DNA of 36,353 bases, taken from the NCBI GenBank assembly GCA_043742365.1, contig JAYTYM010000016.1, positions 1-36,353 on the forward strand. Direction: 5' to 3'. Below, one piece after another: positions 129 to 32,023 of this stretch. This DNA comes from a bacterium. GTDB lineage: Bacteria; Patescibacteriota; Minisyncoccia; Phycocordibacterales; UBA6899. Numbering within the stretch: position 1 is the first letter of the stretch; every line of letters starts with the position of its first letter. Below the pieces are notes generated by a model, which saw only the letters and a list, made by a program, of their open reading frames with translations, was not told where the DNA came from and searched no databases. Made by a program: the position numbers and the translations under genes.

Positions 129-1880
129 TTACTCGCTCACGACTCGGTAGACCTCTTCGATGCTCGTCATCCCTTGGGCGGCTTGAAAGATGCCGTCTTC
201 TAACATGGTGAGCATGCCTTCTTTGCGCGCTTGCTCCTCGATCTTTTCAGCGGATGCGCTTATGATCGCAAGGTCTTTAATCGCAGGCGACATGCGTAGC
301 ACCTCGTGTATACCGATGCGGCCCTTGTATCCTTCCTCACATTCGGGAGAGGGTTTGGGTTTGTAAAACAGCAGCGTTTCCCACGTCGTATCTTTACCGA
401 CGATGTTTTCATCCTTAAGTGCGGTAAGAATACGGTCGAGGTTAGCTTTTTTGCCGAGTGCTTCGATCTCTGACTTCGTCAGAGTGTATTTCTCTTTCGC
501 CAGACACAGTTTTCGCACGAGACGCTGCGCAATGATGACATTCACTGTTGAGATGATGAGGAAAGGTTCTGCGCCCATGTCGATGAAGCGCGGCATAGCA
601 CCTGCAGCCGAGTTCGTGTGGAGTGTAGAGAGGACCAAGTGTCCGGTAAGTGCTGCATTGATACCGAGTGATGCGGTTTCGCCGTCACGGATCTCTCCAA
701 CCATAATGATGTCCGGGTCCTGACGAAGCAGTGCGCGGAGCCCCATAGCAAAGGTGAGGCTTATTTCTGGCTTCACTTGCGTCTGATTGATACGCGGCAT
801 TTGATATTCAACCGGATCTTCGATCGTCGAAATATTTACGTCGGGCGTATTCAAAATATCTAGCAGAGTATATAGCGTCGTGGTCTTTCCGGAGCCAGTT
901 GGGCCTGTTGCGAGTATCATCCCCACGTGCTGCTTCATTGCATTGTGGAGCGCTTCGAGTCCTTGCCCATGAAAACCAAGTCCCTCGAGGCTAAACCCAC
1001 CTGATGACTCGCGCAAAAGACGCATAACGGTCTTTTCCCCATGATGTGTTGGCAAGGTTGATACACGGAACGATACCTTCTCGTTGTTCAATTGTATCTT
1101 GAAGCGACCATCTTGCGGTAGGCGTTTTTCATCCAGCTTTAAGTTCGAAAGCACCTTAATACGTGCGGTGATACCAGGCGCAGAGTCTTTTGGCAGCACC
1201 ATCGCGTCATGGAGAATGCCGTCGATGCGGTAACGTACGAGCAGCTGATTTTCCATTGGCTCGATATGAATGTCGGAAGCATTCTGGATGATAGCGTGAT
1301 TCAAGAGCGTATCAACAATGCGCACCACAGGTAGGTCTTCGGCAAGCTTCTTCAGATCTTTTTCCGACGCAGGATTATCCTCATCATCAGCGAGCATCTT
1401 TATCGATTGTGCTTCTTGTTGGATGATGTCGCCGAACTCAGCCTTCAGGGACTTTTGATACTGCAGCAATGCGCCTTTAATAGACTCTTGATCTGTGAGT
1501 CGCGTCTGGATACGAATACCTACCTTTTTGCGGACAAAGTCTATTGCCTCAAGGTCATCGACATCAAGCATCGCAACCTCTAGCCCGGAATCGGTTTTGC
1601 GAAAGGCGACGATGTTGTGTTTGCGCGCAATGGGCTCAGGGATAAGTGAGAGGATAGCAAAATCAATTTTTTGTCCCTTAAGGTCAACAAATGGAATACC
1701 GAGGATATATGCTTGAACGCGACGCAGATCATCTGTTGAGATCTTTCCCTGCTTGACCAGCATTTCGCCCACATCACCGCCTTCTTTTTCGGCTGTTTTT
1801 TCAGCCGCGAGCATGTCAGCCCGAGTTGCCAACCCAGAATCAAGGATGAATTTCTTTAATTTTGTTTCTTGTACGAGCAT
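129..1880 (-). CDS. pilB: Type IV pilus / type II secretion assembly ATPase (GspE/PilB family)
   Basis: 583 aa. N-terminal T2SSE_N-like domain, Walker A GPTGSGKTTT, and conserved GspE motifs (RLVRKLC, GYKGRIGIHEV). Confidence 0.93.
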   Translation of the reverse strand: MLVQETKLKKFILDSGLATRADMLAAEKTAEKEGGDVGEMLVKQGKISTDDLRRVQAYILGIPFVDLKGQKIDFAILSLIPEPIARKHNIVAFRKTDSGLEVAMLDVDDLEAIDFVRKKVGIRIQTRLTDQESIKGALLQYQKSLKAEFGDIIQQEAQSIKMLADDEDNPASEKDLKKLAEDLPVVRIVDTLLNHAIIQNASDIHIEPMENQLLVRYRIDGILHDAMVLPKDSAPGITARIKVLSNLKLDEKRLPQDGRFKIQLNNEKVSFRVSTLPTHHGEKTVMRLLRESSGGFSLEGLGFHGQGLEALHNAMKQHVGMILATGPTGSGKTTTLYTLLDILNTPDVNISTIEDPVEYQMPRINQTQVKPEISLTFAMGLRALLRQDPDIIMVGEIRDGETASLGINAALTGHLVLSTLHTNSAAGAMPRFIDMGAEPFLIISTVNVIIAQRLVRKLCLAKEKYTLTKSEIEALGKKANLDRILTALKDENIVGKDTTWETLLFYKPKPSPECEEGYKGRIGIHEVLRMSPAIKDLAIISASAEKIEEQARKEGMLTMLEDGIFQAAQGMTSIEEVYRVVSE

Positions 1881-4208: not shown

Positions 4209-4261
4209 TATACTGTTGAAGCGTAAGTTTGGAATTCATTATTTAATAATATTCATAATCT

Positions 4262-5080
4262 ATGAGATCGATCGTACCCATAAGTGCCCTGATGCTCGGC
4301 GCACTGACTCTTCTCCCGGCAGTCAGCTTTGCTGAGCAAATTTCGGCGACAGCAGAAGCTTCTACGGAAACCTCGGGCACCATTAAGGTCCCCGTCACAA
4401 CACACGCCGACAGTTACTCCTTCGGAGCATCCAACCCAACATCAATGGGCACAAGCGGTCATGGTGCAGGCAAAATAACTGCGACCGGCACGAGGCCTGT
4501 TGAGAAAGCTATTGAGGAGCGTATGCAGGAACGCGATGCTATGCATGCAAAATTAGTTGGAAGCGGTGAGGAGCGTAGAGGTGAAATGCGGCAGAACATG
4601 ATGAAAGAGCGCGTAGAAATTTTTTCACACTTTAGCGCAACCATCATCGGTCGCATGAACGCAGCGATCAACAGACTGAAGAAGATCGCGGACCGCCTTG
4701 ACTCACGCATCACAAAAGAGAAAGCCCGCGGAGTCGACACTTCAAAAGCAGAAGCGAATATCGCAATAGCACGCGTAAAAATCTCCGATGCTGAGACTGC
4801 GGTGAGTCTCGCAGCAAATATCGTATCTTCAACAACCGCAAGCATTAACCTGAGCTCGACAACCACAAAGCCCTCCGATATTGGCAAGCCTGTACGAGAA
4901 GAGCTTGCGAAGGCACGTGAGGCAGTATTTGCCGCACACAAAGCACTTGTAGATGCGATATCAAGTCTTACGGGTGTCGTCACAACTTCCGACGAACAGC
5001 ACGGTGATGTAAAAACCCACGGCAAAGTTGGCTCGAGTACAACTGTCTCAACGAGTGCAGGCACATCGGTGACCCATTGA
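4262..5080 (+). CDS. Secreted hypothetical protein (signal peptide, Ser/Thr-rich ends, helical middle)
   Basis: N-terminal MRSIVPISALMLGALTLLPAVSFA signal-like segment. No recognisable domain. Confidence 0.7.
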   Translation: MRSIVPISALMLGALTLLPAVSFAEQISATAEASTETSGTIKVPVTTHADSYSFGASNPTSMGTSGHGAGKITATGTRPVEKAIEERMQERDAMHAKLVGSGEERRGEMRQNMMKERVEIFSHFSATIIGRMNAAINRLKKIADRLDSRITKEKARGVDTSKAEANIAIARVKISDAETAVSLAANIVSSTTASINLSSTTTKPSDIGKPVREELAKAREAVFAAHKALVDAISSLTGVVTTSDEQHGDVKTHGKVGSSTTVSTSAGTSVTH

Positions 5081-5512: not shown

Positions 5513-6601
5513 ATGCCGAGCATTATGGAAAATAAAATCAAAAATACTGATAAGTATCAGGTGACGATAAAGACATTGCCGATGTCTCAAGTAGAGATAA
5601 CCGCCGTCATACCGAGTGAGGAATTTGACAAGACGAGGGGCGAAGCCATCAAGCATATTGGGAAAGACATAGAATTCCCTGGTTTTCGCAAAGGTCATGT
5701 GCCTGAAAAAATGCTCAACTCACGATTAGGTGAAGGGGTGATACTCGAAGAAATGGCAGAGATAGCGATAGGCCGTGTTTATGGAGAGATCATCACCGAG
5801 AGCAAGATCGACGCACTCGGCAGACCAGAGGTACGCATCACAAAGATCGCAGCGGGAAATCCGCTTGAGTTCACCCTCACTACAGCTGTGTTTCCAGAGG
5901 TAATACTTCCCGACTACAAAAAGATTTCCTCCGCGACAAAAATAACTGAGGAGGTGAGCGTGAGCGAAGAAGAGATCGATAAAACGATCGATGAGATCCG
6001 CAAGATGCGCGCGAAAAATGATGCGGCAAAATCAGACGAGCACACCCATGAAGCAGGTACGCAAGCGGAAGTCGAGCCTGAGCTTCCTCCTCTTGATGAT
6101 GCATTCGTGAAGCTACTCGGTGATTTTGAAAACGTTGATGCGTTCAAAGCGAAGCTCAAAGAGAATCTTTTTAAAGAAAAGGAGCGCGCCCTACGCGACA
6201 AAAAACGCGTCGCCATAATGGAGGGAATAATTTCTGCAACTTCAGTCGACTTACCTGAAATTATTGTTGAGCAAGAACTGCACCGCATGGAAGAAGAATT
6301 TACTCAAGAAATATCTCGCATGGGCATGACTCTTGATGCGTACATGAAAGCGGTTGGAAAAACCACACAAGATATGCACAAAGAGTGGCGCCCAGATGCG
6401 GAGAAGCGCGCAAAAGTACAACTTATTACTTCTCAGATTGCCGACAACGAAAAAATCACTCCTGACGAAGAGGAGCTCGCACGAGAAGCTGTGCGTTTGC
6501 ATGAACTTTATCCAGATGCCGACAAAGCGCGTGTGCGAGGCTATCTTGAGATGCTGCTCACAAACGAAAAGGTATTTAAGTTCCTTGAGTCCCAAGCGTA
6601 A
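5513..6601 (+). CDS. tig: Trigger factor, apparently lacking the FKBP-type PPIase domain
   Basis: N-terminal ribosome-binding domain with GFRKGHVP. The C-terminal chaperone arm is present. Only a short acidic linker (KSDEHTHEAGTQAEVEPELPPLDD) sits where the PPIase domain normally lies. Confidence 0.88.
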   Translation: MPSIMENKIKNTDKYQVTIKTLPMSQVEITAVIPSEEFDKTRGEAIKHIGKDIEFPGFRKGHVPEKMLNSRLGEGVILEEMAEIAIGRVYGEIITESKIDALGRPEVRITKIAAGNPLEFTLTTAVFPEVILPDYKKISSATKITEEVSVSEEEIDKTIDEIRKMRAKNDAAKSDEHTHEAGTQAEVEPELPPLDDAFVKLLGDFENVDAFKAKLKENLFKEKERALRDKKRVAIMEGIISATSVDLPEIIVEQELHRMEEEFTQEISRMGMTLDAYMKAVGKTTQDMHKEWRPDAEKRAKVQLITSQIADNEKITPDEEELAREAVRLHELYPDADKARVRGYLEMLLTNEKVFKFLESQA

Positions 6602-13682: not shown

Positions 13683-13797
13683 TGGTCAGTAGGGAGAATC
13701 GATTCCCCGGCGCAAGTGAAGCAGCGACCAAAATCACTTGAGCGTAGCGATTTGAGATTGGAAGTACTCTTGTGGTGTTCACTTGCTTCCCGCACCA
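13683..13797. ncRNA. tRNA-associated structured element A (short form of element B at 24246..24487); strand unresolved
   Basis: The 46-nt core at 13720-13765 matches 24358-24403 at 44/46. It is enclosed by the 9-bp helix 13712-13720 / 13778-13786, which covaries with copy B. A T-arm-like hairpin GGGGAAUCGAUUCUCCC lies at one end. Confidence 0.5.
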
Positions 13798-13840
13798 ATA
13801 TAAAAAAATCCTCTAAAGGATTTTTTTATATTGGTGCGGG
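13789..13840. terminator. Long perfect hairpin that incorporates the CCA end of the preceding tRNA-like element
   Basis: cccgcaccaatataaaaaaatcc-tctaaa-ggatttttttatattggtgcggg, 23-bp arms. Confidence 0.6.
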
Positions 13841-13989
13841 ACGGGAGAATCGAAGTCACGAATCACTAAATCTTTTTCGCTTTGCTCAAAAGCTTAAGTG
13901 TTCTCGACCCCGGCGCGCCACCTCACAAAGCTTCGGTATGCCTTGCGCCCAGTTCGATTCTCCGGAAGCTATGCTTCCTCCGTCCTCGC
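13832..13989 (-). ncRNA. tRNA-Gly-derived minihelix-like element with masked T-loop and about 100-nt insert; ends ..GUCCCGCACCA
   Basis: The 3' end UUCGAUU-CUCCC-GUCCCGC-A-CCA equals the T-loop, T-stem and acceptor of the adjacent tRNA-Gly(UCC). The 5' end GCG(A)GGAC mimics the acceptor 5' strand. The hairpin GGAAGC-AUA-GCUUCC follows. GGAGAAUCGAA (13953-13963 on plus) is the exact complement of UUCGAUUCUCC (13844-13854 on plus). Confidence 0.55.
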
Positions 13990-13990
13990 A

Positions 13991-14037: not shown

Positions 14038-14038
14038 G

Positions 14039-14109
14039 TGCGGGACGGGAGAATCGAACTCCCACCAAGAGTTTGGAAAACTCCTATTCTACCATTAAAC
14101 TAGTCCCGC
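14039..14109 (-). tRNA. tRNA-Gly (anticodon UCC), CCA not encoded
   Basis: GCGGGAC-UA-GUUU-AAUGGUA-GAAU-A-GGAGU-UUUCCAA-ACUCU-UGGU-GGGAG-UUCGAUU-CUCCC-GUCCCGC-A. All four stems pair. Confidence 0.93.
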
Positions 14110-14130
14110 ATTATTTTTGATTTACTAAAG

Positions 14131-14384
14131 TTCACCAAGAGTTTGGAAAGGCCTGTAGGCACTTCCAAATTTATACTTACTGCGGTCGTTAAATTTTTAG
14201 GTCGGTGCGCGAAATGGGAATTTCGGCACACTTCCAAATTTATACTCCTTACAGGAGCTGTCCACTTATTGGGTCTTTTTCAAAAGCCCTCAATGAGTCT
14301 TACGGTGCGGGTCCCGTACCCACACCTCACGCTCTGCTCCTTAAATTTTAGGTCGCTCCCATTCTACCCTTAAACTAGTCCCGC
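14131..14384 (-). ncRNA. Promoter-proximal composite: a perfect tRNA-Gly 5' half (14355-14384) fused to about 220 nt of structured repeat modules, with no T-arm
   Basis: GCGGGAC-UA-GUUU-AAGGGUA-GAAU-G-GGAGC is followed by two CGACCUAAAA..UAUAAAUUUGGAAGUG modules. There is an 18-nt exact direct repeat at 14160-14177 and 14229-14246. A copy of the window-start module sits at 14258-14348. A 17-nt duplicate of the tRNA-Gly(UCC) anticodon/variable region lies at 14133-14149 (= 14063-14079). Confidence 0.5.
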
Positions 14385-14418
14385 ACTGACGTTCGGCTCA
14401 AACTTGAACGTGCTTCGT

Positions 14419-14494: not shown

Positions 14495-15286
14495 GTGAGT
14501 AAACGAAACACAGATGCAGGCTTGGCTAAATCTGTTGATAAAAATGCAGCTGCTTTCCGTATCTGCGCGAAGATATTTGAGTTTTGGCGATTAACCGAAC
14601 TTGAGTCTTCTCGCATGCTTAGGCTCAGTTATGAAGAGTGGCAAAGTGCAAAATGTGCACGATCTTTACCAGCAAAAGCACTTGATGATCTTTCGCGCAT
14701 ACTTTGGATAGCAAGACTATGTACGGATCTTTACCCGCTCGACAAAGAACTCAGCGTGGCATGGCTGCGCAAAAATATCTTTGAAGAACCATTTTGGGGC
14801 ATGTCACCGCTTTATTTTATGCTCTCGAAAAGTGAGGAGCCGCTCGCGAGAACGCATCGCTTTCTTGCTCTGAAATTTGATACATGGGGCGCCCTACGTG
14901 ATGAGCGCAATGAGCTCGTGTACTTAAACGATGAGTTGCGCATCAGCGATGAGCCTATCGATACACTTATGTGCATGGCACTTCGTGTAGCGCGGTCCTG
15001 GCAACTTTCTGCACAAGAAGAGCGAGGACTTTTGGGAACAGAGTTTTCTTCAAATTCTGATTGTAGGGGGTTGCGCCCCGACACGTTGGTCAAAGCACGA
15101 ATGATAGTCCTTATTGATCTTGTTCTCTGGCACATATTTCATGATGGCAATAAAGTCGCCGCATGGGTACGAGCAAACAATATGCATCCCCTTTTTGAAG
15201 AAAAATCGCCACTTCAATTGCTGTGTTCAGGCGATGTAGGGGTTATGAAAGTCGTTTATGCATACCTCCGCAACATTTCACCGTAG
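14495..15286 (+). CDS. Tandem-duplicated Xre-like/DUF2384 (MbcA/ParS-type) antitoxin-domain protein
   Basis: Two similar halves. Each ends in the DUF2384-like signature: WLRKNIFEEPFWGMSPLYFML and WVRANNMHPLFEEKSPLQLLCSGDVGVMKVVYAYL. GTG start with AAGGGG upstream. Confidence 0.7.
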   Translation: MSKRNTDAGLAKSVDKNAAAFRICAKIFEFWRLTELESSRMLRLSYEEWQSAKCARSLPAKALDDLSRILWIARLCTDLYPLDKELSVAWLRKNIFEEPFWGMSPLYFMLSKSEEPLARTHRFLALKFDTWGALRDERNELVYLNDELRISDEPIDTLMCMALRVARSWQLSAQEERGLLGTEFSSNSDCRGLRPDTLVKARMIVLIDLVLWHIFHDGNKVAAWVRANNMHPLFEEKSPLQLLCSGDVGVMKVVYAYLRNISP

Positions 15287-24099: not shown

Positions 24100-24218
24100 G
24101 TTCTAAAGTATACAGCTGACGTCTTAAGCGCCAAAATTAATATAAAAAATGTCTTAAGCTGATTTACTGCTCAACTTTAGTAATTCAACTTAATCTCTGT
24201 GCCTTACTCAATACAATG

Positions 24219-24244
24219 AAAAATACTCCTAAGAGAGTATTTTT
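24219..24244. terminator. Terminator hairpin abutting the CCA end of element B
   Basis: AAAAAUACUC-loop-GAGUAUUUUU, 10 bp. Confidence 0.65.
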
Positions 24245-24245
24245 A

Positions 24246-24487
24246 TGGTCGGCGTGCAGGGAATCGAAGCTTACTGCTTCAGTATACCTTTGCGATTTAA
24301 TCGAAGCATAACTCCTCATAAATACCGCAAAGCTCTTCGATTCCCTGGCGTGAGCAAAGCAGCGACCAAAATCTCTTGAGCGTAGCGATTAGAGATTGGA
24401 AGTGACCAATTCTTCTTTTGCGCTCATCCGCTTAGAAGAATGGAAATACTCTCGTGGTGACTCTTGTGGTGTTTACTCACTCATCCC
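24246..24487 (-). ncRNA. tRNA-Pro-like CCA-ended structured element B (long form of element A)
   Basis: Ends CUUCGAUU-CCCUG-CACGCCG-A-CCA (C1:G72-type, Pro-like). A 13-bp perfect inverted repeat cagggaatcgaag (24257-24269) / cttcgattccctg (24335-24347) masks the T-loop. The 46-nt core at 24358-24403 is shared with element A. The helix 24350-24358 / 24472-24480 covaries with A. Confidence 0.55.
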
Positions 24488-24490
24488 CCC

Positions 24491-24531
24491 CCAAAAATAA
24501 AAAGTCCCCCAAAGGGAGACTTTTTATTTGG
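24491..24531. terminator. Hairpin overlapping the CCA end of tRNA-Pro
   Basis: ccaaaaataaaaagtccccc-aaa-gggagactttttatttgg. Confidence 0.6.
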
Positions 24532-24602
24532 TCGGGCTGCAGAGAATCGAACTCTGACCTCATGCTCCCAAAGCAAGCATACTACCACTATACTACAGCC
24601 CG
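24529..24602 (-). tRNA. tRNA-Pro (anticodon UGG), CCA encoded
   Basis: CGGGCUG-UA-GUAU-AGUGGUA-GUAU-G-CUUGC-UUUGGGA-GCAUG-AGGU-CAGAG-UUCGAUU-CUCUG-CAGCCCG-A-CCA. Confidence 0.92.
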
Positions 24603-24682
24603 ATTTATTGACCTTATTATCAACAAAGCGCCCTATTCCGAGCGCTTTGTGAGTATAGCAAGTTTCCCTAGTCCTGCAATGT

Positions 24683-26647: not shown

Positions 26648-26737
26648 TGGGGATAAAGCTGTGCACAGTGGGGATAAAGGACAACTCCCAATTTTGTAAA
26701 CTGTCCTTTATAAACAGTATCCACAGGTTTATCCACA
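26648..26737. promoter_or_regulatory. Cluster of four DnaA-box-like 9-mers
   Basis: TGGGGATAA at 26648-26656 and at 26669-26677 (1 mismatch each, one orientation). GTATCCACA at 26717-26725 (1 mismatch). TTATCCACA at 26729-26737 (perfect, opposite orientation). Confidence 0.5.
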
Positions 26738-26794
26738 TAATTGTGCATAACTCTGATTTAGGTGGCAAAAACTGCCATTTAGGTAGTTATTTAG

Positions 26795-26940
26795 TGGTGC
26801 GGGCAGATAGAATCGAACGCACAAGTTACTTAGTATTTTGACGCAAGAGCCTTAAAAATACTAAGTATCCGCGGTCCCACCTCGCTATCTTACAGAGCTT
26901 CGATATAGCTCCGGTCAGTTCGATTCTTCCGTCCCGACGC
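26795..26940 (-). ncRNA. tRNA-Gly-derived minihelix-like element (homolog of 13832..13989); ends ..UGCCCGCACCA
   Basis: The 3' end UUCGAUU-CUAUC-UGCCCGC-A-CCA has the acceptor of the adjacent tRNA-Gly(GCC). AGAAUCGAAC (26918-26927 on plus) complements GUUCGAUUCU (26809-26818 on plus). It shares GAAUCGAACUG, CGAAGCU.UGU.AG and GAGGUGG with the 13.9-kb copy, plus a homologous long hairpin with changed sequence. Confidence 0.55.
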
Positions 26941-26988
26941 AGGCACAAAACAAAAGAACAAGCATTCAGCTTGTTCTTTTGTGTGCCT
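26941..26988. terminator. Long hairpin between tRNA-Gly(GCC) and the minihelix-like element
   Basis: aggcacaaaacaaaagaacaagc-attca-gcttgttcttttgtgtgcct. Confidence 0.6.
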
Positions 26989-26989
26989 G

Positions 26990-27060
26990 TGCGGGCAGGG
27001 AGAATCGAACTCCCATCTTAACCTTGGCAAGGTCATGTTCTACCATTAAACCATGCCCGC
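26990..27060 (-). tRNA. tRNA-Gly (anticodon GCC), CCA not encoded
   Basis: GCGGGCA-UG-GUUU-AAUGGUA-GAAC-A-UGACC-UUGCCAA-GGUUA-AGAU-GGGAG-UUCGAUU-CUCCC-UGCCCGC-A. Confidence 0.93.
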
Positions 27061-27190
27061 AAATAATTTTTTCTTCAAAGACGGCTTTTCGATGGGAGAA
27101 CTTCCAATTCTTACTACTTTCGATCTTGGAATTTAGGTCGCCCCCACTTAGCTCAGCAAAGTTCATATTTTACCATCAAACCATGCCCGC
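27061..27190 (-). ncRNA. Promoter-proximal composite: tRNA-Gly 5' half mimic (27161-27190) plus a CGACCUAAA..UUGGAAGU module, with no T-arm
   Basis: GCGGGCA-UG-GUUU-GAUGGUA-AAAU-A-UGAAC is followed by about 60 nt and then GUUCU, which closes the anticodon-like stem. The module (27098-27140) is flanked by the helix UGGGGG / CUCCCA. Confidence 0.5.
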
Positions 27191-27200
27191 ATGTCGTCAT

Positions 27201-27306: not shown

Positions 27307-27378
27307 GCTCTCGTAGTGAAATGGATATCACGACTGCCTTCGAAGCAGTTATTCCAGGTTCGAATCCTGGCGGGAGCA
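27307..27378 (+). tRNA. tRNA-Arg (anticodon UCG), CCA not encoded
   Basis: GCUCUCG-UA-GUGA-AAUGGAUA-UCAC-G-ACUGC-CUUCGAA-GCAGU-UAUU-CCAGG-UUCGAAU-CCUGG-CGGGAGC-A. Confidence 0.93.
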
Positions 27379-27513
27379 CAGCGAGTCTTCGAGTTGGCTC
27401 CCGAGGAGCTGAACTGCTTCAGCTCCGACAGGATTCGAAAGACTTTTCGTTGACGATTCCTAGAGTCCGAAAAGTACCTGCCGATGTAATCGGAGAATCC
27501 TGGCGGGAGCACA
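27379..27513 (+). ncRNA. tRNA-Arg-derived minihelix-like element bounded by a 19-nt direct repeat of the tRNA 3' end
   Basis: gaatcctggcgggagcaca occurs at 27362-27380 and 27495-27513. The insert carries GCUCCCG (27397-27403, complement of the acceptor 3' strand) and the hairpin GGAGCUGAA-CUGC-UUCAGCUCC. It also carries CAGGAUUCGAA (27429-27439), the exact complement of the T-loop/T-stem at 27359-27369. Confidence 0.55.
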
Positions 27514-31084: not shown

Positions 31085-32023
31085 CTATTGCCGACGTTTG
31101 TCGTGAAACTGTTTATGAATGTCCCTGAGTTTGCTATCGGTCACATGTGTATAGATCTGTGTGGTTGCAATATTTGCATGTCCGAGCAATGCCTGCACCG
31201 AGCGCAGGTCAGCACCATTTTCAAGAAGGTCTGTGGCAAAGCTGTGGCGAATAACATGAGGAGTAACCTTTTTAGAAATACCTGCTTTAACTGCGTAATG
31301 TTTCACGAGGCGTTCCACAGATCGCGGCGTCAGTCGCAGATCTCCCTTTTTGGTCGCAAGAGTTTTTACTCCACCTCGACCGATCTGAATGAATAACGCA
31401 CTATCTACATCTGTCCTTTTGTTTAAGTACAGTTTGAGTGCGTTCTTGGCTGTCTCTGACAAAAAAACCACGCGTACTTTTTCGCCTTTTCCACGTACGG
31501 AAAATTGATCACGCGTCAGGTCAAGGTCGCGTGGAAGTCCACACAACTCTGAGACACGCAGTCCAGTTGAAAAGAAAAGCTCAAGTATGGCGCGGTCTCT
31601 AAGTGCAGGAAGCATCTCTCCTTGTGGGGCATTCAATAGTCGCGTCAGGTCTTGAGACGAAATAAGGTCGAGTTCTCGCTCTGATGCTTTCGCGAGCTCA
31701 ATACGTTCAGGCGACATGACCGAAACCCCTTCGCGCGAAAGATATTTGAGAAATGCGCGCAGGGCAATAAGGTAGTAATTCTGGGTGCGCTTCTTCAGCG
31801 TATCTGATGCAATGCCACGCTTAGAAACGCGTGCATTCTGGCGATTAAGCCACAGTCGATACTCACGCACTATTTCAAGAGTTATTTTCTCTGGGTCCGT
31901 GAGTTTCGTGTGTTCGATGAATCGAGAAAGATAGTGATCATAATTAATGACGGTTTTAAGGCTTCTGCCTTTTTCGATCTCGATGTATTCAAGAAAGCGT
32001 CTTTTCCATTCAATGAGATTCAT
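31085..32023 (-). CDS. Tyrosine site-specific recombinase, XerC/XerD-like
   Basis: N-terminal SAM-like domain. C-terminal catalytic motifs: LRVSEL (Arg), HVIRHSFAT, LLGHANIATTQIYTHV (Tyr). Confidence 0.9.
   Translation of the reverse strand: MNLIEWKRRFLEYIEIEKGRSLKTVINYDHYLSRFIEHTKLTDPEKITLEIVREYRLWLNRQNARVSKRGIASDTLKKRTQNYYLIALRAFLKYLSREGVSVMSPERIELAKASERELDLISSQDLTRLLNAPQGEMLPALRDRAILELFFSTGLRVSELCGLPRDLDLTRDQFSVRGKGEKVRVVFLSETAKNALKLYLNKRTDVDSALFIQIGRGGVKTLATKKGDLRLTPRSVERLVKHYAVKAGISKKVTPHVIRHSFATDLLENGADLRSVQALLGHANIATTQIYTHVTDSKLRDIHKQFHDKRRQ

Follow-up and report, generated by a model that had tools for sequence, protein, structure and literature searches.

A tRNA-Pro-derived relic carrying nested modules on its opposite strand, probably small mobile or selfish DNA, in a patescibacterial contig

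We analysed a 36,353 nt contig of a patescibacterial genome (GenBank assembly GCA_043742365.1, contig JAYTYM010000016.1; the whole of this stretch is referred to as the window) and within it a CCA-ended element, element B, which lies immediately downstream of the tRNA-Pro(UGG) gene at positions 24246 to 24487. A prediction made from the sequence alone had described element B as a single 240 nt RNA in which a conserved core enclosed by a covarying helix is followed by a masked T-loop and a tRNA-Pro-type end. Comparison with related loci does not bear out this unity, as the core is an insertion, it is structured on the opposite strand to the rest and the element has no 5' acceptor strand. We read element B as a mosaic relic, that is a decayed tRNA-Pro-derived unit with a structured insert of a type termed S, and which subsequently received two nested core modules on its opposite strand, and consider that it is probably small mobile or selfish DNA. 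The comparisons establish the anatomy of these sequences, their empty sites, the opposite strandedness of their parts, the covariation, the multi-copy and nested nature of the modules and their turnover between strains. Syntenic loci from relatives (contigs numbered L0xx) were retrieved via neighbouring proteins, that of L020 being 76% identical to its counterpart in the window, and the sole related contig bearing an organism name is a Saccharibacteria metagenome-assembled genome (MAG).

In these Saccharibacteria an insertion into a pre-existing conserved hairpin can mimic a conserved core with a covarying helix during annotation, and it is the comparison with empty sites that tells the two apart. 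The core at 24358-24403 (copy B) differs at 2/46 positions from that at 13720-13765 (copy A), making the two 44/46 identical, and the nine bp helices that enclose them, gcaagtgaa/ttcacttgc in copy A and gtgagcaaa/tttactcac in copy B, differ at four pairs, one of which in copy B is C·A on the plus strand and U·G on the minus strand. In all of this the original prediction was accurate, including the fourth pair that is G-U on the minus strand only. In the L020 ortholog of element B, which is 86% identical across 237 aligned nt, the sequence reads GTGAGGCAA-ACTGCC-TTGCTCAC where its window counterpart reads GTGAGTAAA-[109 nt]-TTTGCTCAC, and behind tRNA-Gly(UCC) in L030 the hairpin of copy A is found in identical form, GCGCAAGTGAA-GCAG-TTCACTTGC, with a loop that holds no module. 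As this hairpin, here termed P1, occurs without the core at orthologous sites it pre-exists, and the core represents an indel in its loop at GCA^G, the remnant of which in element B is GCA|G (C|UGC in the tRNA sense) at 24359-24361 and 24471. Seven homologous P1 hairpins are present in Gly, Pro and Arg contexts of four species, all with an invariant CUGC loop (tRNA sense), with 98% of alignment cells paired and both sides changed in 7/9 pairs. The presence of P1 in seven Gly, Pro and Arg-type units also means that it is not the closing helix of the core. The covariation previously taken as the signature of a structured core is therefore real but belongs to the P1 hairpin and not to the core.

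The core itself is built from modules of ~55-60 nt with the layout (G)CGACC, AU-rich hairpin, GGAAGU linker and small hairpin with a CUUGU loop, and the insertions span ~53-109 nt in copies A and B. Copy A is a single module in the loop of P1 while element B holds two, module 1 (24362-24403 and 24460-24470) and, inside it at GGAAGT^ACTC, module 2 (24404-24459), the boundaries of each being ambiguous by 1 nt; this nesting explains the tandem ACTCTCGTGGTG/ACTCTTGTGGTG. A covariance model of the core matched the window at 13719-81 (77 bits), 24357-412 (59 bits), 24415-63 (14.5 bits) and, on the minus strand, 27084-146 (19.7 bits), with no match in 21 kb of syntenic sequence of L020 and L022. Exact-pattern scans returned nine further true copies, one in the Saccharibacteria MAG and eight in metagenome contigs, and a divergent tenth comes from the syntenic locus of L024. 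Hairpin P2 (AAAUCUCU/AGAGAUUU, 8 bp, window plus strand) is perfect in 9/10 of these other copies, with a closing pair that varies between AU, GC, CG and GU and three further pairs exchanged in L024, and hairpin P3 (UACU-CUUGU-GGUG, pairs U·G, U-A and C-G) forms on the same strand. Across both hairpins 95% of cells pair and both sides have changed in four pairs. In the best-supported register of P2 the two differences between copies A and B within the core break two pairs in copy A without compensation; an earlier register in which they had looked compensatory was dropped, since it is the AAAUCUCU/AGAGAUUU register that covaries at the closing pair and in L024.

Wobble pairs give the strand on which each structure forms. 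Read on the window plus strand the core hairpins contain 18 G·U pairs and 1 A·C mismatch, whereas the S unit around them, read on the minus strand, contains 9 and 2, respectively, and the G·U pairs of the enclosing P1 hairpin and inverted-repeat unit also fall on the minus strand. This indicates that core and surrounding unit are structured on opposite strands and that the structure of the core, if it matters, matters on the strand opposite to the CCA-ended RNA.

Modules are nested or in tandem not only in element B but also in L003, L006, L007, L009, L010 and L028, and they are found inside the anticodon and T arms of pseudo-tRNAs as well. Further module subfamilies keep the layout of (G)CGACC, AU-rich hairpin, GGAAGU and small hairpin with stem sequences that are unrelated. 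The modules end in GCGACC... and ...GTGGT(G), their flanks GCA| and |GTT are not duplicated, and the 5' flank may end in GCA, GTA, GGA, GGG or CGG, amounting to a loose target. Close copies in Saccharibacteria-type contigs usually adjoin stable RNA genes such as tRNAs and 5S rRNA, and also rpsT, the genes near other copies are housekeeping genes (for example gyrB, ftsW/rodA and cofD), and the orientation of the core to neighbouring genes varies. One copy (L008, 4205-4345) lies in a GCCAA-GTAG-TTGGC hairpin around which there is a direct repeat of ~23 bp, CTMACGCTTGTCRTCACAGATAAA, an arrangement seen at no other copy.

Once the modules are set aside the minus strand of element B terminates in CTTCGATT-CCCTG-CACGCCG-A-CCA (24269->24246; in RNA letters CUUCGAUU-CCCUG-CACGCCG-A-CCA), thus with a discriminator base and a 3' CCA (CACGCCG-A-CCA, 24256->24246), beyond which lies a hairpin (24219-24244). 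Over 36 nt (24233-24268 vs 24516-24551) that take in the 3' end and the first part of the terminator it shares 81% identity with tRNA-Pro, and over the next 32 nt, the remainder of the terminator, 75%, in keeping with the earlier description of a Pro-type CCA end that is not a copy of the neighbouring tRNA-Pro. This end is tRNA-Pro-derived, and ~280 bp of non-coding sequence separates tRNA-Pro from it. The perfect 13 nt inverted repeat of the original prediction, CAGGGAATCGAAG / CTTCGATTCCCTG (24257-24269 / 24335-24347, 100% complementary, 65 nt apart), was likewise recovered, and in 0/200 shuffles of 24200-24620 did a repeat of that length arise (maximum 11). It results from the first 8 nt of the 74 nt S-type insert, AAUCGAAG, being complementary to the T-loop. 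A direct repeat GCGTG beside the 13 bp arms is not present in other S units. On the acceptor side no YGGYGUG is found anywhere in the upstream part of element B, where the best 7-mer pairs with CACGCCG at 5/7 positions, and the L020 ortholog likewise has no 5' strand pairing to CACGCCG; GGGAUGA of the would-be acceptor 5' region is conserved in L020. Lacking a 5' acceptor strand, element B is not foldable as a tRNA-like molecule with an acceptor stem, and it is a degenerate member of a family of tRNA-derived units. A promoter scan found no promoter-like site for it.

The same family is seen behind every tRNA gene of the window, as all four are followed by a terminator-like hairpin and then by a tRNA-derived unit, and each unit is a tRNA-derived copy in tandem with its parent. 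The units run from an acceptor 5' strand through P1, with its nine bp and CUGC loop, to the T-stem 5' strand, a structured insert of 70-110 nt and an end that copies the tRNA from its T-loop through the T-stem 3' strand and the acceptor 3' strand as far as the A, often with CCA and a terminator. There are thus two changes with respect to the parent tRNA, namely P1 in place of the D and anticodon arms and the insert between the T-stem 5' strand and the T-loop. The clearest unit is that of L030, GCGGGAC-A-[P1]-GC-GGGAG-[AAUCGAAG...spacer...C]-UUCGAUU-CUCCC-GUCCCGC-A-CCC, which has a perfect 7 bp acceptor stem (GCGGGAC/GUCCCGC) and a T-stem (GGGAG/CUCCC) that are both identical to those of tRNA-Gly. 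Several units encode CCA where the parent Gly genes do not, each with its own terminator. The tandem layout also accounts for palindromes of 25-38 nt around the terminators, since the acceptor 3' strand of a gene lies opposite the acceptor 5' strand of the unit that comes after it. We had also considered 'anti-acceptor' and 'anti-T' segments as inverted copies made by recombination; a simpler explanation is a tandem tRNA-derived unit, whose 5' acceptor strand and 5' T-stem strand they are.

The inserts of these units fall into three families, S (element B, L020, L022, L028 and L030), G (unit A', the unit after Gly-GCC, L028 and L029) and R (after tRNA-Arg). The first 7-8 nt of all of them are complementary to the T-loop of the locus (AAUCGAA for UUCGAUU, AUUCGAA for UUCGAAU), which gives rise to the T-loop-masking repeat. 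The masking of the T-loop proposed for element B is in this sense recurrent, being formed by a helix around a structured insert with compensatory changes in homologs. Homologs of the S family occur at the Pro, Gly-UCC and Gly-GCC loci of four other contigs, with 93% of cells paired and six pairs changed on both sides. Unit A of the window has lost the spacer (GGGGAAUCGAUUCUCC), while unit A' has homologs at 26797-26985 of the window and in L028 and L029. The R unit of ~135 nt is syntenic behind tRNA-Arg(UCG) in four species (the window and, on the minus strand of the relatives, L020 8395-8625, L022 1112-1342 and L024 3450-3680), the acceptor 3' strand being missing in L020 and L024. The four-species alignment reads compensatory changes in four helices, that is the CUGC-loop hairpin P1, two inner hairpins and the enclosing CAGGAUUC/GAAUCCUG. 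Judged from this alignment the R unit, which is absent from Rfam, is a good candidate for a conserved structured RNA.

Units and modules turn over rapidly between relatives. Behind tRNA-Gly(GCC) there is a G-type unit in the window, an S-type unit in L022 and none in L020 or L024/L025. L029 and L030 share a flank that is 99.9% identical over 1025 nt and an identical neighbouring protein, yet L029 has a G-type unit and an upstream tRNA-Gly copy broken by a core-type module (at position 29/30) and by a second insert at the T-loop, whereas L030 has an S-type unit and no upstream tRNA-Gly copy. Disrupted tRNA copies lie upstream of Gly-UCC and Gly-GCC in the window and of the tRNA-Pro of L024, and the layout of the pseudo-tRNA-Gly(UCC) of the window recurs with one module in L029 and two in L028. 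In L022 (4110-4340) a segment with a second complete tRNA-Pro (acceptor CGGGGCG) interrupts the anticodon loop of a tRNA-Pro whose acceptor is CGGGCUG; this looks like gene replacement by an insert of ~150 bp. The breakpoints of the tRNA fragments are at the anticodon loop and the T-loop. Repeats of this kind would be expected to break assemblies; L035, an independent assembly from another sample, begins in the middle of the 46 nt core, and L032-L034, closer strains from other samples, stop 89-117 nt past the gene upstream of tRNA-Pro, before element B, and so give no extra alleles. These breaks are consistent with repeats or with heterogeneity between strains.

Two further observations were made at disrupted tRNA loci. 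A small repeat family, GTGAGG..TGGGTA.GGGA.CCC..CGCAAGAC with a GGGAACCCG...CGGGAAC hairpin, is found at 1-100 and 14258-14310 of the window and in L029 (~380-470), L022 (~4255-4285) and L024 (~6160-6195), its members being inserted where T-stem and T-loop meet in disrupted copies of tRNA-Gly and next to fragments of tRNA-Pro. In L003 (~880-1010, minus strand) a tRNA-like gene, GCGGGTG...TACTCGCACC, has normal D and T arms, whereas its anticodon arm is enlarged by a helical insertion of ~40 nt; it was not called by ARAGORN and could be an intron-containing or a disrupted tRNA.

The reading we favour is as follows. The backbone on the minus strand consists of a decayed acceptor 5' strand, P1, the T-stem 5' strand, the 74 nt S insert, the T-loop, the T-stem 3' strand, the acceptor 3' strand, A, CCA and a copied terminator, and the core modules (two nested in B, one in A) would have inserted on the opposite strand into the P1 loop. 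Units and modules alike may be small non-autonomous mobile or selfish sequences that colonise the single-stranded loops of tRNA genes and of tRNA-derived hairpins, mobilised by an enzyme whose gene presumably lies elsewhere. The strand-specific conservation of the hairpins would follow from a single-stranded intermediate of DNA or RNA, and element B would persist as an inactive relic because the intact upstream tRNA-Pro does the work. There are a number of points that weigh against this account. The direction of change at the empty sites, insertion rather than deletion, is decided by parsimony only, and the modules, which lack both terminal inverted repeats and a target-site duplication and choose their targets only loosely, could not be assigned to a known transposition chemistry. 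No transposase, integrase or reverse transcriptase adjoins any copy examined, and the window's single recombinase (31085-32023), which keeps its synteny in relatives, resembles housekeeping XerC/D. The helices of P1, the S insert and the R unit keep pairing through compensatory changes and the R unit stays in synteny in four species; such changes look like purifying selection on a transcript and fit function as well as a structure needed for mobility. Finally the sample comprises only ~15 module copies and ~12 units, from the contigs and loci retrieved.

An alternative, which we regard as unlikely, is that the tRNA-derived units, element B included, are functional tRNA-like non-coding RNAs made beside the parent tRNA with the core as an accidental passenger. 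Such a unit could act through its acceptor/T-arm minihelix, 3' CCA and insert-masked T-loop as a decoy, regulator or substrate of RNase P, CCA-adding enzyme, synthetases or tRNA-targeting toxins. Consistent with function are the compensatory changes and G·U bias in the tRNA sense in P1, the S insert and the R unit, the retention of R behind tRNA-Arg(UCG), the perfect acceptor stem and tRNA-Gly-identical T-stem of L030, the CCA encoded although the parent Gly genes lack it, the units' own terminators and the manner in which the 5' end of the insert tracks the local T-loop variant. However, element B and its L020 ortholog have no acceptor 5' strand, the R units of L020 and L024 have no acceptor 3' strand, a strong terminator separates each unit from its tRNA with no promoter found for element B, antisense insertions of 50-110 nt are tolerated in P1, and units are absent or of swapped type between close relatives and strains with near-identical flanks. 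A related and tentative possibility, to which we likewise give little weight, is that the units form a new class of structured RNA, derived from tRNA and ending in CCA, with an acceptor stem, a CUGC hairpin and a masked T-arm, and serve as decoys or regulators of tRNA-binding enzymes or as a retro-mobile RNA intermediate, while the core modules are, separately, new structure-guided mobile elements that use neither terminal repeats nor duplications in homing to hairpin loops; a retro-mobile RNA intermediate would be in line with CCA being encoded where it is missing from the parent genes. Should the core be an independent small RNA gene of the plus strand, present in two copies in the window and antisense to tRNA-derived sequence by chance, its two covarying hairpins, strong G·U bias on that strand and ten further close copies in Saccharibacteria-type contigs, usually beside tRNAs, 5S rRNA and rpsT, would be accounted for. 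This we hold to be very unlikely given the precise presence and absence of the core inside hairpin loops, its nested and tandem copies (also in pseudo-tRNA arms), its inconstant orientation to neighbours, the lack of a promoter-like site, the damage to P2 in copy A and the entirely different hairpin sequences of subfamilies that share one layout.

Integration into tRNA genes offers another origin, in which the locus is the scar of an integrase-mediated event and the CCA-ended piece is the displaced native 3' end (attR). The interval could then be the deletion-reduced remnant of an island or a cis-mobilisable miniature element, and the inverted T-arm copies could be a folded attachment site like that of CTX phage. 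Integrase crossover classically takes place at the anticodon loop and the T-loop, at which the fragments break here. Each intact tRNA has its own 3' part directly repeated behind it, the tRNA-Pro of L022 is split at the anticodon loop around a second complete tRNA-Pro, and in published cases integration normally splits the tRNA gene with one fragment being displaced (Islander, PMC4383910; tRNA gene fragments, PMC9897764). We nonetheless find this origin quite improbable, as the units also hold acceptor 5' and T-stem 5' strands in the right order, which an integrase 3' duplication would not yield, and resemble whole tRNA copies with replaced interiors. There are no integrase or island genes between the repeats, whose intervals measure 130-290 bp, the 3' fragment of element B fails to match the acceptor of the resident tRNA-Pro, the repeat runs on through the terminator and the covariation of the interior speaks against neutral debris. 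A small mobile or selfish sequence remains our preferred reading of element B.

Known systems resemble these sequences in part. Islander-type tRNA fragments share the partial 3' copies downstream of an intact gene, the breakpoints at the anticodon and T-loops and the strain-variable content, but here the intervals of 130-290 bp have no integrase, 5' acceptor and T-stem strands are kept, and there is an invariant-loop hairpin with covarying structured inserts. Miniature inverted-repeat transposable elements (MITEs), repetitive extragenic palindromes and bacterial interspersed mosaic elements (REP/BIME), Rickettsia palindromic elements and Correia/RUP/BOX repeats are also short, multi-copy, hairpin-forming, intergenic or within RNA genes, nested, seen as filled and empty sites and without an encoded enzyme; unlike these the modules have no terminal inverted repeats or duplication, vary in hairpin sequence under a fixed CGACC - hairpin - GGAAGU - hairpin layout and target tRNA-derived hairpin loops. 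Palindrome-associated transposable elements (PATEs) of IS200/IS605 and the REP-associated tyrosine transposase system (REP/RAYT) likewise lack inverted terminal repeats and duplication, carry two hairpins at dissimilar positions near their ends with a strand-specific structure that tolerates G·T wobble, favour single-stranded DNA such as hairpin loops and often have a 5' flank ending in GNAG/GTAG-like sequence, whereas in the modules the left and right hairpins are unrelated, the right end is at the foot of a hairpin, the target motif is loose and no Y1/HUH transposase is seen near the copies. Among tRNA-like RNAs (the domain of transfer-messenger RNA (tmRNA), YrlA, plant-virus and retroplasmid ends) L030-type units share an acceptor stem, T-stem, 3' A-CC(A/C) and replaced anticodon arm, but their T-loop is paired with no D-loop partner, they have no tag reading frame or Ro-binding stem and score far below threshold in Rfam, and element B has no acceptor stem. 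Intervening sequences of rRNA hairpin loops are also sporadic extra stem-loops within pre-existing helix loops of stable RNA genes; here the host is a non-essential tRNA-derived copy to which the core is antisense, and removal at the RNA level cannot be inferred.

Database searches gave no other identity for element B. Rfam 15 contained nothing beyond the tRNAs at gathering thresholds or, over the regions of interest, in E-value mode, so the Infernal check that had been suggested yielded no family, and ARAGORN together with cmscan called only four true tRNAs in the window, E-value mode included. As a tRNA (RF00005/ARAGORN) element B fails on the 7 bp acceptor stem, for which the best 7-mer reaches 5/7, on the single nine bp hairpin with a 4 nt loop that replaces the D and anticodon arms and on the T-loop, which is paired in the 13 bp repeat. 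For tmRNA (standard, permuted or two-piece) ARAGORN found none, tmRNA_permuted reached 11 bits against a threshold of 47 over the terminator only, and the acceptor is Pro-type. The YrlA/Y RNA family RF02553 gave only 28 bits against 69, overlapping the T-arm of the real tRNA-Arg, and no TROVE-domain (Ro) protein was found among the 20 large open reading frames of the window that were scanned. The modules are multi-copy with filled and empty sites between relatives, as MITEs are, but have neither terminal inverted repeats nor target-site duplications, and the GCGTG repeat, being unseen in other S units, is not a MITE target duplication. As in a displaced tRNA fragment a direct repeat of the 3' part lies downstream of the gene (81% over 36 nt), with no tyrosine integrase or island between tRNA-Pro and the 3' fragment of element B. 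A tRNA interrupted by a group I or other intron would require a 5' exon, of which there is none, and a group I intron would need much more room than the inserts offer; that group I introns can occur in tRNAs of the Candidate Phyla Radiation (PMC8172020) was the only related statement found in the literature searched. The core is not protein-coding, as every frame stops in copy A or copy B, and is not a promoter, the hexamer spacing being wrong and the promoter scan negative. Element B had no match in phage or plasmid collections, and nine 16-mer matches of the core in viral contigs, all without conserved flanking sequence, look like chance, as does a match in a cyanobacterium (L001). Integron attC sites, bulge-helix-bulge introns and hammerhead-type motifs gave no match by inspection.

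Debris of tRNA genes and small structured interspersed repeats are thus known kinds of sequence; neither Rfam nor the literature searched, with queries that were not aimed directly at these features, yielded the present families, their shared architecture or their preference for hairpin loops as insertion sites. These families show that small reduced Saccharibacteria genomes carry fast-turnover tRNA-derived units and hairpin-loop-seeking modules of ~60 nt around every tRNA gene examined, with helices that are kept by compensatory change despite this turnover. If mobile, units and modules would be among the smallest structured insertion elements, and if functional the units would constitute a new family of tRNA-like RNAs. 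In both cases these sequences account for the assembly breaks at tRNA loci and are possible strain markers.

Table 1 Features of the window that relate to element B, its modules and the tRNA-derived units
Feature	Position	Strand	Basis or description
tRNA-Gly-derived unit A	13684-13799	-	Acceptor 5' strand GCGGGAA, P1 with module, T-arm-like hairpin GGGGAAUCGAUUCUCC, decayed 3' end UACUGACCA; aligned to L030
Copy A, single core module in GCA^G loop of P1 (arms 13712-13720 / 13778-13786)	13724-13776	+	Covariance-model hit, 77.1 bits
tRNA-Gly-derived unit A' (G-type insert)	13826-13990	-	Acceptor strands GCG(A)GGAC / GUCCCGC, end ACCA
tRNA-Gly(UCC)	14038-14109	-	ARAGORN
Pseudo-tRNA-Gly(UCC)	14130-14385	-	Positions 1-29, then nested core-like modules and other inserts; resumes at TTTCCAAACTCTTGGTG
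Hairpin and T-run after CCA end, paralog of tRNA-Pro terminator	24219-24244		Inverted and direct repeats
tRNA-Pro-type T-loop, T-stem 3' strand, acceptor 3' strand CACGCCG, A73, CCA	24246-24268	-	Direct repeat of tRNA-Pro 3' end and terminator
S-type structured insert, T-stem 5' strand to T-loop	24269-24342	-	Long helix with inner hairpin and short UACUG/CAGUA hairpin
Inverted-repeat arm	24335-24347	-	In tRNA sense T-stem 5' strand CAGGG, then AAUCGAAG
P1 hairpin 3' arm (tRNA sense), UUUGCUCAC	24350-24358	-	P1 family alignment
Core of element B, two nested insertion modules	24362-24470	+	Covariance-model hits, 59.5 and 14.5 bits; absent from L020 orthologous hairpin
P1 hairpin 5' arm (tRNA sense), GUGAGUAAA	24472-24480	-	P1 family alignment
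Expected site of acceptor 5' strand, reads GGGGGGGGAUGA	24481-24494	-	No pairing with CACGCCG
Terminator-like hairpin between tRNA-Pro and element B	24495-24529		Inverted repeat of 16 nt, 94% complementary; terminator-like hits
tRNA-Pro(UGG), intact, CCA encoded, parent gene upstream of element B	24529-24602	-	ARAGORN; Rfam tRNA, 63.8 bits
G-type unit after tRNA-Gly(GCC)	26797-26985	-	Homologous to unit A'
tRNA-Gly(GCC)	26989-27060	-	ARAGORN
Divergent core-like module in T-arm of pseudo-tRNA-Gly(GCC) (27061-27191), upstream of intact gene	27084-27146	-	Covariance-model hit, 19.7 bits, E = 8e-4
tRNA-Arg(UCG)	27307-27379	+	ARAGORN
R-type unit after tRNA-Arg(UCG)	27380-27513	+	3' end is exact 19 nt repeat of tRNA 3' end; four-species alignment

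The window encodes NusA, trigger factor, RNase Y, CCA-adding enzyme, PNPase and a chemotaxis operon and is bacterial chromosome. Between a UPF0102 gene and the tRNA-Gly(GCC) unit it contains five DnaA-box-like 9-mers (TTATCCACA, <=1 mismatch) in ~100 bp (26648-26750), this 9-mer having 22 matches in the window against 7.6 expected, and the block is conserved in L020, L022 and L024 and may be an oriC or a DnaA-regulated region. A 263 aa protein encoded at 14495-15286 on the plus strand has a weak C-terminal match to the toxin-binding domain of Xre/MbcA/ParS antitoxins (E = 8e-4, below the Pfam cut-off), and its homolog in the L020 genome is shortened to 158 aa.

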